From Alphaproteobacteria bacterium (GTDB lineage: Bacteria > Pseudomonadota > Alphaproteobacteria > SP197), in the NCBI GenBank assembly GCA_965228895.1, contig OZ245842.1, positions 768,001-832,000 of the forward strand: 64,000 nt of DNA, read 5' to 3'. Shown here one piece after another: positions 45,964 to 53,728 of the stretch; position 1 is the first letter of the stretch; every line of letters begins with the position of its first letter. Position numbers and translations under genes: made by a program. The notes beneath the pieces are model-generated. The model did no database searches, was not told the origin of the DNA, and worked only from the letters and a program-made list of their open reading frames with translations.

Positions 45964-47373
45964 ATGACCAAACCGCGCACGCTGTTTGACAAGATCTGGG
46001 ACGATCACGTCGTCGCCCATAATGGTGACGGCACACCGGTCATCTATATCGACCGCCACCTCGTGCATGAGGTGACCAGCCCACAGGCGTTTGAAGGTCT
46101 GCGCAATCACGGCCGCCGGGTACGCCGGCCCGCCGCGACGCTGGCCGTTGCCGACCACAACGTCCCGACCCACGACCGCGCACTCGGCATTGACGATGAG
46201 GAGTCGTGCATTCAGGTCGAGACCCTGACGATGAATTGTGAGGCGTTCGGCGTCGAGCTCTTCGGCATGAACGATCCGCGTCAGGGTATCGTGCACATTA
46301 TCGGGCCGGAGCAGGGTTTCATTCAGCCGGGCATGACCGTGGTGTGCGGTGATAGCCACACCTCGACCCACGGCGCATTCGGCGCGCTCGCCTTCGGTAT
46401 CGGTACCAGCGAGGTCGAACACGTCCTGGCGACCCAGACCATGGTCGAGGACAAACCGAAGAACATGTTGGTCAAGGTCGACGGCGATGTGCCGCTCGGC
46501 GTCACCGCCAAAGACGTGGTGCTGGCGATCATCGGTGCCATCGGCACCGCCGGCGGTACCGGCCACGTTATCGAGTTTGCCGGATCTGTCATTCGCGGGC
46601 TTTCCATGGAAGGCCGCATGACGGTTTGCAATATGACGATCGAAGGCGGTGCGCGCGCCGGCCTGATTGCGCCCGACGACACGACCATCGACTACGTCAA
46701 GGGCCGTCCGATGGCGCCGACCGGCGATCACTGGGACCAGGCCGTCGCCTACTGGCGGTCGCTGCCCAGCGACGAGGGCGCGCATTTCGACAAGCAGGTT
46801 TTCCTGGACGCGGCTGACATCGAACCGCAGGTGACGTGGGGGACGAGCCCCGAAAACGTCCTGCCGATCTCCGGCCGCGTGCCCGACCCCGCCGATTGTG
46901 CCGAAGACCATCACCGTGACGCCATGGTGCGCTCATTGAACTACATGGACCTGAAGCCCGGCACGCCGCTGGACGGCATCACGATTGACCGCGTCTTCAT
47001 CGGCAGCTGCACCAACGGCCGCATCGAAGACTTGCGCGCCGTCGCCGAGGTCGCCAAGGGCCGCAAGGTCGCCGATAACGTGAACGCCATGGTGGTGCCC
47101 GGTTCCGGGTTGGTGAAGCAGCAGGCCGAAGAAGAGGGCATCGCGCAGGTGCTGGTCGATGCCGGTTTTGATTGGCGCGAACCCGGCTGTTCCATGTGCC
47201 TGGCGATGAACGCCGACAAGCTTGAGCCCGGCGAACGCTGCGCCTCGACCTCGAACCGCAACTTCGAAGGCCGTCAAGGCCGCGGCGGGCGCACCCATCT
47301 GGTCAGCCCGGCCATGGCGGCGGCGGCCGCGATTGCCGGTACACTGACCGACGTTCGCAAACTGGTTGGCTGA
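45964..47373 (+). CDS. leuC: 3-isopropylmalate dehydratase large subunit
   Basis: [30 protein letters not shown] and [12 protein letters not shown] motifs. Confidence 0.97.
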
Positions 47374-47384
47374 GGGAGACGATT

Positions 47385-47990
47385 ATGGACAAGTTCACCA
47401 CGTTGACCGGGATCGCCGCGCCCTTGCCGATGATCAACGTCGATACCGATATGATCATTCCCAAACAGTACCTGAAGACGATCAAGCGCACGGGCCTTGG
47501 CAAACATTTGTTTGACGAAATGCGTTTCACGCCGGACGGCAAGGAAGTCCCTGAGTTCATCTTGAACCAGGATGCCTACCGCAAGGCCGAGATCCTGATC
47601 GCCGACGAGAACTTCGGCTGTGGCTCCAGCCGTGAACATGCGCCGTGGGCGCTGCTCGATTTCGGCATCCGCTGCGTCATCGCGCCGAGCTTCGCTGACA
47701 TCTTTTTCAACAACTGCGTCAACAACGGCATCCTGTGCATCGAGCTGCCCGACTGGGAAGTTCACCGCTTGCTCGCCGATGCCGGGCTTGGCGCCAACGC
47801 CCGTTTTACAGTTGATCTGGAAGCGCAGACGATAACCCGTCCCGACGGTGAGACGATCGAGTTCGACATCGACGCCGCCCGCAAGCACCGCCTGTTAAAT
47901 GGCCTTGACGAGATCGGCCTGACCATGCAGATGGACGATCAGATCTCCGACTTTGAATCCGAACGCGATAAGAAGCATCCCTGGGTGTGA
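47385..47990 (+). CDS. leuD: 3-isopropylmalate dehydratase small subunit
   Basis: [11 protein letters not shown] and [13 protein letters not shown] motifs. Confidence 0.97.
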
Positions 47991-48354
47991 ACGCCACGCG
48001 CGAACGGCGGACGACTGTGTCGAACCTACGCCGTGGACCGTAAGTCTTCTCTCGACATCGCGACGTCGAGCAGTGCCGTCACCCGCTATGTTGGCATGCG
48101 TGTGGGGCGCATGACGATCAGCGCGCGAGTAGCGCTGAAATTTGCAGCTAGCGTTCAAGGGGCGATGGCCCTCGAACCAACCCTACTTTGAGTGGTGTCG
48201 TCGGCATGTTTGTTGGTTGTCGAAAAACTCCTACCATTCCCCGTGATGCGCTGGTAGGGGATGCGACACGGGCGGCTCTGGGGCAAAGCTGGCGCGTCGC
48301 ATCTGCGTCAAAGATCTACCCGTACATAGACTGTCCTGGTTTGGGGGGAACACA

Positions 48355-49464
48355 ATGACAGCCAACAAGCAGCTGCTGATGCTGCCTGGCGATGGCATCG
48401 GCCGTGAGGTCATGGCCGTGGCGGAACGTGTGGTTGACTGGTATGCCAAACGCCGGTCGCTTCAATTCGATGTCGAACACGATCTGATCGGTGGAATCTC
48501 GTTCGATACGCACGGCACGCCGTTGACGGACTCGGCGCTCGAGCGCGCCAAGCGAGCTGATGCCGTGCTGCTGGGTGCTGTCGGTGGACCCCAATGGGAT
48601 GGTCTGGCGCGTGAGCACAAACCGGAGACCGGCCTCCTGAAGATCCGCAAGGAGATGGGTCTTTTCGCGAACTTGCGCCCGGCCCTCGTTTTCCCAGCTT
48701 TGGCGGAAGCCTCGACCCTCAAGACCGAGCTGGTGTCGGGCCTCGACATCATGGTCGTGCGCGAATTGACCGGCGGTATCTATTTTGGCGAACCGCGTGG
48801 CATCGACGATCTGGGTGGTGGCGAACGCAAGGGCTTCAACACCATGGTCTACACGACCGAAGAGGTGCGGCGCATCGCCCGTGTCGCCTTCGACCTGGCC
48901 AAGAAACGGAGTGGCCGCGTGTGCAGCATCGACAAAGCCAACGTGCTGGATGTTTCCATGCTGTGGCGCGAGGAGGTCATCAAGCTGCACCAGGAAGAAT
49001 ATGCCGACATCGAGCTATCGCACATGTATGTCGACAACGCGGCCATGCAGTTGGTGCGCGATCCCAAGCAGTTCGATGTCATCGTTACCGGCAACATGTT
49101 CGGCGACATTCTTTCGGATGCGGCCGCGATGCTGACCGGTTCGCTCGGCATGTTGCCGTCGGCGTCGTTGGGTGCGGAGGTTGGCGGTCGCATTCCGGCA
49201 CTCTATGAACCCGTCCACGGTTCGGCACCGGACATCGCCGGCAAGGACATAGCGAACCCGCTTGCGACCCTGCAGAGCTTTTCGATGATGCTGCGGTACT
49301 CCTTCGACTTGGGCGAGGAGGCGCAACTGCTGGAGACCGCAATCGAACGTGTGCTGGCCAGCGGTTTGCGAACCGCCGACATCATGCAGGACGGCAAGGC
49401 GCGGGTGTCGACCAGCACCATGGCCGACGCCATCTTGCGCGAGCTCGACAAGGCTGCCGACTAG
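48355..49464 (+). CDS. leuB: 3-isopropylmalate dehydrogenase
   Basis: [25 protein letters not shown] and [10 protein letters not shown] motifs. Confidence 0.97.
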
Positions 49465-49469
49465 TCTCG

Positions 49470-50243
49470 TTAGGGCGTGTTCACCGTCAGGTGCGTGCCT
49501 GAATCGACAACCAGCAACTGGCCGGTGACGCCCGGCGCGCCGCCGGCAAACCAGGCGACTGAATCGGCGACATCCTCGGCGCTCACAAGATGTTTCAGCA
49601 TCGATAGCTCGCGAACCCTGCCACGGAACGTTTCATAGGCAGCCGGCTCCATACGCTGCGCCGACCAGCGGGTGTCGACGTAGCCGGGGCACACCGCGTT
49701 GACCCGAACCTCCGGCGCCAGAATGCGCGCCAACGACATGGTGAGCGTGTTGAGCGCGCCCTTCGAGGCGGCGTAGACGACCGAGCTGCCGTAGCCCGAA
49801 AAACCTGAATGGGATGAGATGTTGACGACGCTGCCGTGCGACGCGCGCAACGCCTGTTCGGCCGCGCGCGCCATCTGAAAGGCGCCCCGGACGTTGACGC
49901 TGATGACCTTCTCGAAGTCCTCGGCGGTCACTTCGTCCATCTGATCAAGCGGTACATAGCGTGTGATCCCCGCATTGTTGACGAGGGCGTCGACCCGACC
50001 CCAACGGCCAAGCGCCGCATCGACCATGGACCGGCATACGGCATCGTCGGTGACGCTGCCTTGCTGAATGAAAAAGTCGGCGCCGGCGTCGCGGCACAAC
50101 CGGGCCGTTTGCTGAGCGTCAGCTTCGCTCCTGGTGAAATTGATGACGACGTTCCATCCGTCTGAGGCCAGACGGCGTGCGCTCGCCGCGCCGATGCCGG
50201 TGGCCGAGCCGGTGACGATGGCGACCTTGCGTTGGCCTGTCAT
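49470..50243 (-). CDS. SDR family NAD(P)-dependent oxidoreductase
   Basis: TGSATGIG, NNAG and YAASKG motifs. Confidence 0.88.
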   Translation of the reverse strand: MTGQRKVAIVTGSATGIGAASARRLASDGWNVVINFTRSEADAQQTARLCRDAGADFFIQQGSVTDDAVCRSMVDAALGRWGRVDALVNNAGITRYVPLDQMDEVTAEDFEKVISVNVRGAFQMARAAEQALRASHGSVVNISSHSGFSGYGSSVVYAASKGALNTLTMSLARILAPEVRVNAVCPGYVDTRWSAQRMEPAAYETFRGRVRELSMLKHLVSAEDVADSVAWFAGGAPGVTGQLLVVDSGTHLTVNTP

Positions 50244-50358
50244 GGATCCTCGTCGCGTCCGTGTCGATATCTGTCGAATGCATCAGGATGGCCCAGGCGA
50301 CGCGCTGGGTCGAGCCTGCGCGCCGGCTTTAGGGCTGGATGGGTAGGTCCTTTGGGCC

Positions 50359-50387
50359 TTGCACATTGGACCGACTGACGCCATATT
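50359..50387 (+). promoter_or_regulatory. Putative sigma70 promoter for the asd leader
   Basis: TTGCAC-N17-CATATT, about 40 nt upstream of the leader start codon. Confidence 0.5.
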
Positions 50388-50429
50388 CCGCGCAGCTGAC
50401 AAGCGATTCGAGTGAGTTTGGATTCCGTG

Positions 50430-50528
50430 ATGAACGTTCGTTTCACCTTACCGGTCGATCTGGCCGCCGCCCTTGGCGGTGCCGCCATGACCAAAACCAC
50501 GACCAAAACCCCGGTAGTGAGGCGCTGA
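50430..50528 (+). CDS. Putative asd leader peptide (32 aa; MNVRFTLPVDLAAALGGAAMTKTTTKTPVVRR)
   Basis: Run ATG ACC AAA ACC ACG ACC AAA ACC at 50487..50510, with the stop 4 nt before the antiterminator arm. The in-frame ATG 50487 is an alternative start giving 13 aa. Confidence 0.75.
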   Translation: MNVRFTLPVDLAAALGGAAMTKTTTKTPVVRR

Positions 50529-50562
50529 CCACCGGCCCGGTCAGCGTGCCATAAGATGAACC

Positions 50563-50586
50563 AAGGGGCCGGAAGGCCCCTTTTTT
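50563..50586 (+). terminator. Rho-independent terminator of the asd leader (attenuator)
   Basis: AAGGGGCC-GGAA-GGCCCC-TTTTTT: GNRA-loop hairpin plus U-tract, about 58 nt upstream of the asd start. Confidence 0.85.
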
Positions 50587-50644
50587 GTTGCTTTGATTGT
50601 AGGATAACCGCCCAGGCTGGCTCGGGCGGCGAAAGGAGAGGGTG

Positions 50645-51682
50645 ATGGGTTACAAAATGGCAGTTGCTGGCGCCACGGGCGCGGTCGGCAACGAAATGCT
50701 GCAGATCCTCGCCGAGCGGAACTTCCCGGTCGACGACATGGTGGCACTCGCCTCGTCCAACTCGGTTGGACGCGAAGTGTCGTTTGGCGAAGACCACACG
50801 CTGAAGGTCCAGGACCTCGCCACCTTCGACTTCAAGGGCACCGAGTTGGCGCTCTTCTCGCCGGGCGCGAAGGTATCCGACGAGCACGCGCCGCGCGCCG
50901 CTGCTGCCGATTGCATCGTCATCGATAACACGTCGCGTTTTCGTTACGACGAGGATATCCCGCTCGTCGTGCCGGAAGTGAACGCCGAGGCGCTGGCCGG
51001 GTACGAGAACCGTTACATCATCTCCAACCCCAACTGCTCGACGATCCAGATGCTGGTGGCGCTCAAGCCGCTGCACGATCTGGCGACCGTCAAGCGCGTC
51101 GTCGTCGCGACCTACCAGTCGGTCGGTGGTGCCGGCAAGAAGGGCATGGACGAGCTCTACCTGCAGACCAAGAACAAGTTCTGGAACGAGACGTCGGAGC
51201 CCGACGCTTTCCAGAAGGAGATTGCGTTCAACTGCATTCCCCAGATCGACATCTTCATGGATGACGGTTCGACCAAGGAAGAATGGAAGATGGTGGTCGA
51301 GACGCAGAAGATCCTGGATCCAGCGATCAAGGTGCAGGCCACCTGCGTGCGCGTGCCTGTCTTTGTCGGCCACGCCGAGGCTGTGAACGTGGAGCTTGCT
51401 TCACCGCTGTCGGCCGACGATGCGCGTGAACAGCTCCGGGAATCCGACGGCATCGTGGTCTTGGACGAACGGGTGCCCGGCGGTTACATCACCCCGAAGG
51501 AATGCGCCGGCGAGGACGCGGTCTATGTCAGCCGTATCCGCAACGACCCGACGATCGAGAACGGGCTCTCGATGTGGGTCGTCTCGGATAATCTGCGCAA
51601 GGGCGCCGCACTTAACGCCGTGCAGATTGCCGAAGAGATGGACCGCCGGTTCCTGAAGGGCGCGTTGCCGAAGGCCAGTTGA
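50645..51682 (+). CDS. asd: Aspartate-semialdehyde dehydrogenase
   Basis: GATGAVG, NPNCSTIQ, CVRVPVFVGH and DNLRKGAALNAVQI motifs; AGGAGAG SD. Confidence 0.97.
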   Translation: MGYKMAVAGATGAVGNEMLQILAERNFPVDDMVALASSNSVGREVSFGEDHTLKVQDLATFDFKGTELALFSPGAKVSDEHAPRAAAADCIVIDNTSRFRYDEDIPLVVPEVNAEALAGYENRYIISNPNCSTIQMLVALKPLHDLATVKRVVVATYQSVGGAGKKGMDELYLQTKNKFWNETSEPDAFQKEIAFNCIPQIDIFMDDGSTKEEWKMVVETQKILDPAIKVQATCVRVPVFVGHAEAVNVELASPLSADDAREQLRESDGIVVLDERVPGGYITPKECAGEDAVYVSRIRNDPTIENGLSMWVVSDNLRKGAALNAVQIAEEMDRRFLKGALPKAS

Positions 51683-51718
51683 CGACGTCGGCTGCGGACG
51701 GTTGAACGGGTGGGCGCC

Positions 51719-52120
51719 TTAGAAAGCGCCCTTCCATTGCTCCGTGTCGACGAACCAGCGCTCCTCAAAGACCTTGCCGTTGCTGAGCTTGAACAACACC
51801 GCGAGCTGGCTGCCTTCCGGCACCTTCTCGCTTGTCCATTCGATGATGGAGACAACTTCGTCGCTGTCGCCAATCTGACGGATTGAGGAAAACGCGAACC
51901 CGGGCGGCAAGGCGGCACCGATGTTCTCGAGCGCACTGCGAAACCCTGCTTTGCCTTCGATCACATCGTTTTGGCCGGGTATGACAAAAATCATGTCGTC
52001 GGTGTAGTCGGCGATCAGCGTGTCCCAATCGCCTCGTAGAACTGCTTCCCATCCCCGCTTCACGATGTCTGCATCACTTGCCCCGTGATCAACGGAATGC
52101 GACGGTTGTGCGTTGGACAT
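51719..52120 (-). CDS. SnoaL/NTF2-like protein
   Basis: GDWDTLIADYTDD...GKVFEERWFVDT; AGGAG SD. Confidence 0.75.
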   Translation of the reverse strand: MSNAQPSHSVDHGASDADIVKRGWEAVLRGDWDTLIADYTDDMIFVIPGQNDVIEGKAGFRSALENIGAALPPGFAFSSIRQIGDSDEVVSIIEWTSEKVPEGSQLAVLFKLSNGKVFEERWFVDTEQWKGAF

Positions 52121-52291
52121 TTCCTGGCTCCTATCGTTACGACCGATGTGTCAGCGTAGTTCGGCGGTTGGCAGTCGGATATCCGGCCGATGATGTATTT
52201 TGGCTCCATCAAATGCAGTATTCTGCCTACGGCGTCTGCGCTGAATGCGGATCGATGAGCTGGCAGGTCCGACAGAAATCGGGGAGGAAAC

Positions 52292-53728
52292 TTGGAAAAT
52301 CCCACGCCTCCGTATGAGCGGCTAAGCCGCAGGGAGAAGGAGATTGCGACCGCATTCTCTGGCGGGGAGAACCATCACCAGATTGCCGAACGGCTTTGCA
52401 TCGCGCCTTCCACGGTTCGCACGCATCTGGCGTCGATCTACCGAAAGCTTGAGGTCTCGTCGAAGCTGGAGCTTCACAAATCGCTTGAAGGTGGCGGTTC
52501 GAAACGAGTCGGGTCGGATACCGCACTTCCGGTTATCTCGGACAGACCTTCGATTGCCGTTTTGCCGTTCGCCAGCATGTCAGACGATCCCGATCAGGGA
52601 TACTTTGCCGAGGGAATCGCAGAAGACATCATCACCGCGCTGTCGAGGATCAAGTGGTTCTTCGTGACCGCGAAGCTCTCAAGCTTTTCCTACGAGGGCC
52701 GTGCCGTCGACGTGAAGCAAATCGGAAGCGAGCTCGGCGTGCGCTACATCTTGGAGGGTAGCGTTCGCAAATCCGGTCTTCGCGTCCGTGTTACCGCCCA
52801 ACTGGTCGACTCATCGAACGGTGAGCATGTCTGGGCGGAACGGTATGATCGCGAAATCAGCGACATTTTTGACATCCAAGACGAGATAACCCGCAATGTC
52901 GTCGCAAGCACGCAAACCCAAGTTGCGTTAGCCGAAGCGTCCCTGTTCGCAGACTTGGAGAAACCGTCCTTGCCCGTCTGGGCGCTGGTCAATCGATCTT
53001 GGAAGCTCATGTACGACATGACCGCTGACTCCTTGCTGGAAGGTCGGCGTTTGGCTGAAGAAGCCATTGCCATGGATCCAGGCAGTGGCCGCGCCCATCA
53101 GGTTTTGGCAGCCCACTTCTGGCACTGGTATTGGATGGGTTTTGCCGACGACCGAAGAAAGACCCTTGATGAAGGCAGGAAAGCGGCAGAGCGGGCCATT
53201 CGCCTCAACGAGTATGACGAGTATTCCCATTGGCTGCTCGGTCTGCATCAGATGACCGATCATAACTTCGATATGGCGGTGGCGGAGCTAAAGCGCGCTA
53301 TTGAGATCAACTCCAACTGCTCATTGGCCTATGGCAGCCTTGCCACGGTTCTTAACTTTGCGGGGCAACCAGAAGAGGCGATCACCAACAATTTGATTGC
53401 GGTTCGTTCCAATCCTCGCGATCCGAGCATTTTCTATCGGCATACCGGACTGGCGTTGTCGCACTTCTTGCTGAACGACTATGAGGCGGCGATCGGATGG
53501 GCTCGACAGTCGGTTCTATTCAAGCCGGACTGGTTCCAGGGGCATGTCGTACTGATTGCGGCACTCGTTGAATCCAACCAGATCGGGGCCGCTAAGATAG
53601 CCTTTAGCGATTACTTGAGACATTTCCCCAAAGCATCGCGCGACGAGGTCTTGGGCCTGCCTTTTAAAGACCCCGAACCCGGTCTGCGGTTGGTCAAGTC
53701 TCTGGAAAAGGCGGGCTTGCAAGGGTAA
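52292..53728 (+). CDS. LuxR-type HTH + TolB-like (adenylate-cyclase-associated) + TPR regulator
   Basis: LSRREKEI...IAPSTVRTHLASIYRKL, PSIAVLPF, YILEGSVRK, WAERYD, followed by TPRs; TTG start with GGGGAGGA SD. Confidence 0.85.
   Translation: MENPTPPYERLSRREKEIATAFSGGENHHQIAERLCIAPSTVRTHLASIYRKLEVSSKLELHKSLEGGGSKRVGSDTALPVISDRPSIAVLPFASMSDDPDQGYFAEGIAEDIITALSRIKWFFVTAKLSSFSYEGRAVDVKQIGSELGVRYILEGSVRKSGLRVRVTAQLVDSSNGEHVWAERYDREISDIFDIQDEITRNVVASTQTQVALAEASLFADLEKPSLPVWALVNRSWKLMYDMTADSLLEGRRLAEEAIAMDPGSGRAHQVLAAHFWHWYWMGFADDRRKTLDEGRKAAERAIRLNEYDEYSHWLLGLHQMTDHNFDMAVAELKRAIEINSNCSLAYGSLATVLNFAGQPEEAITNNLIAVRSNPRDPSIFYRHTGLALSHFLLNDYEAAIGWARQSVLFKPDWFQGHVVLIAALVESNQIGAAKIAFSDYLRHFPKASRDEVLGLPFKDPEPGLRLVKSLEKAGLQG

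Follow-up and report, generated by a model that had tools for sequence, protein, structure and literature searches.

A candidate threonine/lysine-codon leader-peptide attenuator upstream of asd in a family of Alphaproteobacteria

The leader region upstream of asd

Aspartate-semialdehyde dehydrogenase (Asd) feeds the Lys, Thr, Met and Ile pathways and is the last enzyme common to the lysine, threonine, methionine and isoleucine branches. In a 64,000-nucleotide stretch of an alphaproteobacterial genome of 5.5 Mb and 62% G+C (assembly GCA_965228895.1, contig OZ245842.1, positions 768,001 to 832,000; this whole stretch is called the window, and its numbering is used throughout), the asd gene is preceded by a compact leader. 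This leader is made up of a promoter-like site, a short open reading frame (ORF) carrying a cluster of Thr and Lys codons, a hairpin (hairpin A) that holds the stop codon of the ORF in its 5' arm, and an intrinsic terminator whose 5' arm is complementary to the loop of hairpin A (Table 1). These parts are likely to act together as a leader-peptide attenuator of asd transcription, mediated by the ribosome and reading Thr codons and probably Lys codons, and such an attenuator would probably report the supply of charged tRNA-Thr and, with a further degree of caution, that of charged tRNA-Lys. An initial annotation, made from the DNA letters alone, had proposed a Thr/Lys/Met-sensing attenuator at this place; its Thr and Lys components are borne out by the comparisons described below, and its Met component is not. 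When the sequence was read again, the promoter-like site, the ORF, the codon run, the CCGGCCC and GGGCCGG segments, the terminator and the asd Shine-Dalgarno (SD) sequence were all found where that annotation had placed them. The locus shows features expected of a leader attenuator: a cluster of pathway end-product codons in a short 5' ORF, a terminator between this ORF and asd, and an antiterminator that is mutually exclusive with the terminator, the last of these having both comparative and thermodynamic support.

Table 1. Coordinates of the asd leader element and of neighbouring features in the window
Feature	Coordinates	Strand	Description
Promoter-like site	50359..50387	+	TTGCAC-N17-CATATT; TTGCAC 50359-64, CATATT 50382-87
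Leader ORF	50430..50528	+	32 codons + TGA; ATG 50430, TGA 50526-28; peptide MNVRFTLPVDLAAALGGAAMTKTTTKTPVVRR
Candidate regulatory codon run, M-T-K-T-T-T-K-T	50487..50510	+	ATG ACC AAA ACC ACG ACC AAA ACC; 5 Thr + 2 Lys in 8 codons
Hairpin A	50523..50546	+	5' arm 50523-30 (holds stop 50526-28), loop 50531-38, 3' arm 50539-46; -13.9 kcal/mol
Predicted antiterminator segment, CCGGCCC	50532..50538	+	in hairpin A loop; pairs with GGGCCGG 50566-72; duplex -14.9 kcal/mol
Intrinsic terminator	50563..50586	+	8-pair stem 50563-70/50575-82, loop GGAA, T-run 50581-86; -15.8 kcal/mol; found by terminator scan
asd, aspartate-semialdehyde dehydrogenase	start GTG 50642 or ATG 50645, end 51682	+	NF011456 486 bits, TIGR01296 432 bits
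GC hairpin, CCGCCC...GGGCGG	50608..50629	+	3' end 4 nt before asd SD
leuC	45964-47373		NCBIfam match
leuD	47385-47990		NCBIfam match
leuB	48355-49464		NCBIfam match
SDR-family gene	49470-50243	minus, antisense	NCBIfam match

In-frame alternative starts for the leader ORF lie at GTG 50412, GTG 50427 and ATG 50487, and the last of these may just as well serve as an internal start, from which a 13-residue peptide would be made. The leader peptide matched no family in Pfam and none in NCBIfam (hmmscan, E ≤ 10). The description of AAA as a minor Lys codon agrees with its 24% share of Lys codons in 1345 long ORFs of this genome with high G+C at third codon positions; ACC and ACG are the two common Thr codons of the genome, and two rare codons occur in the leader ORF, GTA (2.4% of Val codons) at -4 and AGG (3.6% of Arg codons) at -2. 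The promoter hexamers, TTGCAC or TTGCAT and CATATT, are kept in all three genomes of the same genus, with a spacer that varies. A scan of 48000-53000 against the Escherichia coli consensus, by which the hexamers at 50359-87 are weak, returned no promoter-like site at its thresholds. The leader ORF begins ~35 nt after the likely transcription start site. The asd gene, the sole match in the genome at E ≤ 1e-60 in an Asd search, has a good SD sequence (AGGAG, 50634-38) and is presumably the gene under the control of the element.

Conservation of the leader among relatives

A DNA search of 41 relatives, together with a search using Asd, provided asd upstream regions from which 11 homologous leaders were aligned and a covariance model was built. 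This model found one strong match each (75-115 bits) in 13 of 33 family genomes: all three genomes of genus g1, all three of g2 and seven of the 23 of g4, with none in the three genomes of g3 or the single genome of g5. Another two matches, at 28.7 and 26.7 bits, are weak and fall on terminators that have no asd in their vicinity, and among 80 named loci from public genomes the element was found only in records duplicating family genomes. In all 13 genomes asd lies directly 3' of the element on the same strand, one of these asd genes being cut by a contig end. The leader is directly preceded by leuB in nine of the ten genomes outside the window's own genus, and in the tenth, G014, ~830 nt separate leuB from asd. 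An antisense SDR gene stands between leuB and the element in all three own-genus genomes and in none of the other ten, as expected if it was inserted between the leu genes and asd in this genus, which is what the initial annotation had supposed. The end of leuB is here 1.1 kb from the element, with the antisense SDR gene in that gap, and the element is kept next to asd at 85% identity; judging from gene order, the element appears to have stayed with asd when the SDR insertion parted asd from leuB. In family members lacking the element, including most of the largest genus, g4, the distance from the leuB stop to the asd start is mostly 4-10 nt with no leader, an arrangement suggesting that in these g4 genomes the leu operon ends with asd.

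The RNA structures are well kept among the 13 homologues. RNAalifold, applied to the 13 sequences, independently predicted two hairpins, which are hairpin A and the terminator; these have 89% and 97% of their alignment cells paired, against 20-61% when the same helices are slid along the alignment. The 5' arm of hairpin A, GCUGACC, with the stop codon inside it, is invariant, and the helix has one outer pair that covaries, together with one-sided changes to G-U. The antiterminator pairing holds in 94.3% of cells as compared to 27-51% for slid controls, the mutual exclusivity of CCGGCCC:GGGCCGG with the terminator that had been proposed for the window thus being conserved in the homologues. One antiterminator pair covaries, being G-C in ten genomes and C-G in three; these three are the own genus, and the change is probably a single event. 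The loop sequence is GGCCCC in four genomes, where the pairing, with GGGGCC, is shifted by one register. The antiterminator fills the loop of hairpin A save for 1-2 nt and abuts its 3' arm. Another upstream pairing in the initial annotation, in which a segment 1 was matched as CCGGTAGT:ACCACCGG, did not survive comparison, as it includes an A-C mismatch and its share of paired cells, 48.8%, does not exceed that of shuffled or slid controls; hairpin A (50523-30/50539-46) replaces it as the conserved upstream structure. A long-range helix between CCCCGGU (50509-15) and ACC..GGGG, enclosing hairpin A, was considered and rejected: it appears in the unmasked fold before the terminator 3' arm is made, a ribosome stalled in the codon run would cover it, and no equivalent was seen by eye in g2.

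A search of 49000-52000 against 4227 Rfam families (cmscan, E ≤ 10) returned four weak and unrelated matches only, with no match to the thr leader, the lysine riboswitch or the asd RNA motif. The element is thus a candidate RNA family that, on the basis of these searches, appears to be absent from Rfam. One of the sub-threshold matches, to the Rhizobiales small RNA Atu_C8 (RF02502; 50492-50597, 26.5 bits, E 0.023, against a gathering score of 50), was rejected, as the terminator hairpin carries the match. Among 151 genomes of the class, Atu_C8 has one true match (98.8 bits), located before an MFS transporter gene and not asd, and two weak ones, which are a plain terminator and an ilvIH leader. 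The latter (L113:1400-1700, genome G087) encodes a branched-chain leader peptide, MRFVIVLVGRATGVI, followed by a terminator before an acetolactate synthase large-subunit gene, and is the known ilvIH-type attenuator of alphaproteobacteria.

In all 13 homologues an ATG-started ORF of 32-39 codons is in frame with both the stop codon and the Thr run. These ORFs are unalignable and variable in length over their N-terminal two thirds; they have in common the frame, a cluster of Thr/Lys codons, (A/G)-G as the last codons and the stop. The leader-peptide tails are MTKTTTKTPVVRR in the window's own genome (G000), MTTTTTKTPVGRR in G002, MTTTTTKTPVVRR in G001, AATKTTTVTRGG in G007, FATKTTTMFRGG in G010, AATKTTTMTAGG in G003, AKKTTTRTTAG in G014, AMKTTTTLMKAG in G174, AAKTTTTKIIAG in G175, CTKTTTATIKAG in G005, AATTAALAATAG in G012, AMKTTTTRITAG in G179 and AMKTTTTMRTAG in G178. 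In a count of the last 12 residues of each peptide (156 in total) against the rest of the peptides (321) and the genome, Thr makes up 62 tail residues (40%), 12 residues elsewhere (3.7%) and 5.4% of the genome, and Lys 17 tail residues (11%), 9 elsewhere (2.8%) and 2.8% of the genome, equivalent to enrichments in the last 12 codons of ~7-fold and ~4-fold, respectively. The counts for Ile are 4 in tails and 12 elsewhere (genome 5.2%). Those for Met are 7 and 14 (genome 2.6%), and the single ATG of the run is absent at that position in seven of the 13 homologues, so that the part of the initial annotation dealing with Met sensing is not upheld; alignment of the asd upstream regions of relatives, which it had called for, finds the Thr/Lys run and the stems conserved and the Met codon not. 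Close relatives differ by synonymous Thr changes between ACC and ACG (G178 vs G179), and the window's own genome differs from its sisters by a two-base AAA-to-ACG change that replaces Lys by Thr; such changes point to selection on the decoded residue and not on the bases. Twelve genomes have a Lys codon adjoining the run, and in each of them it is AAA; Lys codons at -3 and -5 are AAG. Codons -3 to -5 include T, K, I or M in ten of the 13 homologues; the own genus has P-V-V-R-R there. Taken together, the codon content of these leaders supports sensing of Thr and Lys.

All ten homologues outside the own genus carry TGGACA-N17-TAnnnA, at the position that corresponds to the promoter-like site of 50359-87, followed by the leader ATG 7-10 nt on, which suggests that their leader-peptide mRNAs are leaderless or nearly so. 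The -35-like hexamer lies within the last leuB codons in nine of them, and in G014 it is present in non-coding DNA.

Ribosome position, folding and alternative explanations

In the mechanism proposed here, transcription would start at the promoter near 50359-87, and the leader ORF would be translated while RNA polymerase advances. An unhindered ribosome would arrive at the UGA at 50526-28, open hairpin A and cover CCGGCCC, located at +6 to +12 nt from the stop; with this segment covered, the terminator at 50563-86 would fold and most transcripts would end before asd. A ribosome delayed in the leader would leave CCGGCCC free to pair with GGGCCGG, the loop-proximal half of the terminator 5' arm, and this duplex would form before the terminator 3' arm is made, allowing the polymerase to read into asd. 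The parts of this switch are conserved, its alternative pairings are mutually exclusive and the distance from stop to antiterminator is fixed; from these observations we infer translation of the leader, a response to starvation and which of the stall positions count.

The fixed distance bears on the claim that a ribosome at the stop codon covers the antiterminator. Counted from the stop codon's first base, the antiterminator starts at +6 nt in 12 of the 13 homologues and at +7 in the other. A ribosome is assumed to protect ~12 nt from the first base of the A-site codon, and with this protection and these offsets a terminating ribosome would cover the antiterminator segment exactly, in agreement with the claim. 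When the window's own sequence is folded without the terminator 3' arm, hairpin A (-18.8 kcal/mol) and the antiterminator (-18.9 kcal/mol) are isoenergetic. The antiterminator becomes the minimum free energy (MFE) structure when a ribosome mask ends at 50523-31, and is lost once the mask reaches at least 50535. A mask drawn to end at the stop codon makes the antiterminator the MFE structure in 13/13 homologues (-15 to -25 kcal/mol, with terminators of -13 to -17 kcal/mol). The masked folds suggested by the initial annotation agree with it for masks ending at 50523-31; a ribosome stalled at the codon run leaves hairpin A free.

Several observations weigh against the proposed attenuator. The element is absent from 20 of the 33 family genomes, and the leader ORF has no clear SD sequence. 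Covariation is thin, being limited to one pair in the antiterminator and one in hairpin A with most pairs invariant, and a perfect complement of at least 7 nt to the terminator 5' arm occurs 8-65 nt upstream at 10 of 165 strong terminators in this genome, so that such a 7-nt complement, taken alone, is moderately unusual and constitutes weak evidence. At full length, hairpin A plus terminator (-33.9 kcal/mol) is ~11 kcal/mol more stable than the antiterminator state (-23.0 kcal/mol), and the switch must therefore be kinetic. In the own genus the Thr/Lys run ends six codons before the stop, and a ribosome stalled there protects only to ~50519-21, which leaves hairpin A free to fold, so that on nested energetics the terminator still forms, a response of the wrong sign. 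The earlier statement that stalling at the run frees the antiterminator is thus not straightforward, the run being too far from the stop to open hairpin A, and read-through on Thr/Lys starvation in the own genus would need a predicted pseudoknot or some other effect.

Two versions of the attenuator can be distinguished by the role they give to hairpin A. In a classical arrangement, hairpin A may serve as an anti-antiterminator which is opened only by stalls one to four codons before the stop; this fits the relatives because of the T, K, I or M at their codons -3 to -5, and the P-V-V-R-R at those codons in the own genus is a misfit. The other version is doubtful but would accommodate the own genus: the antiterminator, as the loop of the stop-codon hairpin, would capture the terminator 5' arm as an H-type pseudoknot, with an 8-bp stem 1, 1 nt, a 7-bp stem 2, 0 nt and a final loop of ~26 nt, lengths that are sterically acceptable by general rules. 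Hairpin A would then stay folded under a ribosome stalled at the Thr/Lys run, its loop presenting the antiterminator, and read-through would be the default whenever a ribosome stalls upstream or the leader is not translated. Termination would set in only once a ribosome had arrived at the last codons, opened the hairpin and come to rest on its loop.

Alternatives to an attenuator must explain the same set of parts. The terminator could be an ordinary one, ending leuB transcripts in relatives or an unrelated short transcript, with the ORF and the complementarity incidental and the asd promoter located downstream. The position of the element directly after leuB in nine of ten outside homologues would suit a terminator of leu transcripts, long frames stay open by chance in GC-rich DNA, and upstream complements of 7 nt or more are not confined to this terminator, as noted above. 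This explanation is nevertheless very improbable, since in the own genus the element has remained beside asd across the antisense gene and the 1.1 kb that part it from leuB, only the tail of the ORF is enriched in Thr/Lys, an enrichment upheld by synonymous and class-preserving changes, and the stop-to-antiterminator offset is fixed in 13/13; furthermore, the consensus scan of 48000-53000 found no promoter-like site from 50586 to asd, where only the GC hairpin is seen by eye. The promoter-like site and strong terminator are also what a free-standing small gene would possess, whether it makes a small protein or a small RNA, in which case its synteny with asd would involve no cis regulation. Attenuator transcripts and leader peptides of S. 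meliloti can act in trans, as described for rnTrpL and peTrpL (PMC10117765). Such a gene is improbable here: a folded or targeted peptide would hardly be kept in its C-terminal Thr/Lys tail only and vary freely in sequence and length over its N-terminal two thirds, as this one does; asd is in every case the gene immediately downstream of the element, on the same strand; and the mutually exclusive pairing would serve no purpose. A role in trans may exist on top of attenuation.

It is also conceivable that the switch is real and set by something other than amino acid supply, such as a metabolite-binding RNA, an RNA-binding protein, or translation efficiency or coupling without amino-acid specificity. 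The conserved loop of hairpin A and its invariant GCUGACC arm could be a binding site, the hungry codons of the own genus are too far from the hairpin for the classical mechanism, and the rare GTA and AGG codons lie at -4 and -2. Set against this, the element matches no Rfam family save for the spurious sub-threshold one, the RNA upstream of the Thr run is unconserved and the ~25 conserved nucleotides are too few for a known aptamer class, and Thr/Lys enrichment recurs in asd leaders that are not homologous to this one. A switch set by another signal is accordingly given little weight, and a Thr- and probably Lys-reading attenuator is the preferred interpretation.

Related leaders, neighbouring features and significance

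The rarity of such a codon cluster within the genome was assessed by a six-frame scan for at least six Thr/Lys in eight codons, with a stop no more than 20 codons on and a terminator within 110 nt. Five places in the 5.5 Mb were found, two of which precede Thr-related genes, these being the asd leader and a leader before a thrS paralogue. The places at 4511557 and 1496745 (G000) were rejected, as both are embedded in long open frames, lack a separate gene after them and look like the antisense strand of paralogous transporter genes; at 2150560, by eye, the match seems to come from reading the end of a gene out of frame. At the thrS paralogue, which lies outside the window (G000:C1:3190800-3192300), a 25-codon short ORF (sORF), MFGWNAQTWTTTTTRKGGPLGCRAR, with five consecutive Thr codons begins 7 nt after TTGACA-N17-TATGTG and is followed by a terminator, then by a thrS paralogue that is truncated (TIGR00418 470 bits, covering 164-548 of the 565 profile positions) and an MFS efflux gene of DHA2/EmrB type. 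This leader reads like a Thr-codon attenuator that turns on a spare threonyl-tRNA synthetase when tRNA-Thr charging fails. Nearby, and likewise outside the window (G000:C1:3194950-3196750), a Met-rich sORF, MVNLTNLSAAMMKPHMMHGAASFVMS, begins 5 nt after TTGACC-N17-TAGATA and is followed by a terminator, the 5' arm of which has a 7-nt complement upstream, and by a metG-like gene (TIGR00398 417 bits). The metG-like gene and the thrS paralogue are 4 kb apart, and together with the efflux pump they look like a cluster of spare aminoacyl-tRNA synthetases under leader control.

Leaders of comparable codon content were also sought before asd in the class. The sample comprised 80 of the 133 genomes with an Asd match, from a one-genome-per-family draw of 151; it was taken from the top of the score table, leaving out six genomes already covered, one at a contig edge and all weaker rows. 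A strict scan, requiring a terminator and an sORF tail with at least 9 of 14 residues T, K, M or I, found two of the 80, L152 (…ATTKTATKTAGKTTGV) and L146 (…FITKTTKYH). A relaxed scan with at least six T/K in the last 14 codons and the terminator optional found six of the 80, compared to one of 80 on the reverse strand and 0-3 of 80 with eleven other residue pairs. Thr/Lys-rich sORFs that cannot be aligned with the element precede asd in three other lineages, L091/L092 (…STKTLTTKKTLA), L110 (…ITKGKIKTATTR) and L097 (Thr-rich), and at L152 and L146, and in each of these the segment directly after the stop is complementary to the terminator 5' arm. As far as sequence comparison can tell, leaders with Thr/Lys codons have a scattered distribution before asd but recur within the class, and are apparently independent of one another.

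The enterobacterial thr attenuator (thrL) regulates thrABC and senses Thr and Ile. The asd leader has in common with it a run of Thr codons, a stop adjoining the antiterminator and a terminator before an aspartate-pathway gene; unlike thrL, it has asd as its target, combines Thr with Lys codons, and carries its antiterminator after the stop, in the loop of a stop-containing hairpin.

A precedent at the same position is provided by SEP5, an sORF of Sinorhizobium meliloti whose downstream gene we take to be asd, an identification that is unconfirmed. According to its source (PMC10117765, Microlife 2023), SEP5 has 6 Thr and 3 Lys codons clustered close to the 3' end, and lies within the 5' untranslated region of a gene named by the authors the aspartate dehydrogenase gene. 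Its translation is there demonstrated by ribosome profiling (Ribo-seq) and Western blot, it is reported to be conserved only in Sinorhizobium, and it is called "possibly a leader peptide", a proposal made since Thr and Lys derive from aspartate (PMC10117765). The asd leader described here is like SEP5 in position and in its Thr/Lys codon cluster, a likeness drawn from the description only; that description of SEP5, as consulted here, mentions no terminator or antiterminator structure of the kind predicted for the asd leader and no test of regulation. A leader of T/K-rich composition similar to that of SEP5 (…ATTKTATKTAGKTTGV, genome G059) does not align with the asd element. The statement in the initial annotation that no asd attenuator has been characterised stands insofar as none was found in the literature searched, and is qualified by the earlier proposal of SEP5 as a leader peptide (PMC10117765). 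The idea of a leader for asd is thus already in print, and its structure, family and wider distribution are not, as far as these literature searches reach. The asd leader shares with the trpL/rnTrpL leader of S. meliloti and the alphaproteobacterial ilvIH leader a short leader ORF and a terminator, and differs from them in the amino acids sensed and in the target. The S. meliloti trpL mRNA is described as leaderless (PMC10117765); the asd leader of the window's own genome is not, unlike trpL, and the ten outside homologues resemble trpL in this respect.

Two features adjoin asd itself. At the place equivalent to the GC hairpin of 50608-50629, alignment of the relatives shows a GC-rich hairpin of other sequence, and mRNA stability or translation are possible roles for this hairpin. 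About 600 nt 3' of asd, a 478-residue protein is encoded at 52292-53728, with an N-terminal LuxR-type helix-turn-helix (weak matches) and C-terminal TPR repeats.

To our knowledge, the control of asd level is poorly known outside enterobacteria and Firmicutes; other organisms use riboswitches or repressors at this branch point. The class of mechanism proposed here is a textbook one, and the gain in understanding would be incremental unless the pseudoknot geometry is real. The comparative set, consisting of the 13 homologues, the non-homologous analogues and the SEP5 precedent, defines the mutations to be tested. A leader in which Thr and Lys codons are mixed would allow two end products to be read out at the branch point in simple AND/OR fashion, and if the pseudoknot version of the switch and the recurrence of Thr/Lys leaders are true, this family would possess a two-end-product sensor of unusual RNA geometry at the common step of a branched pathway.

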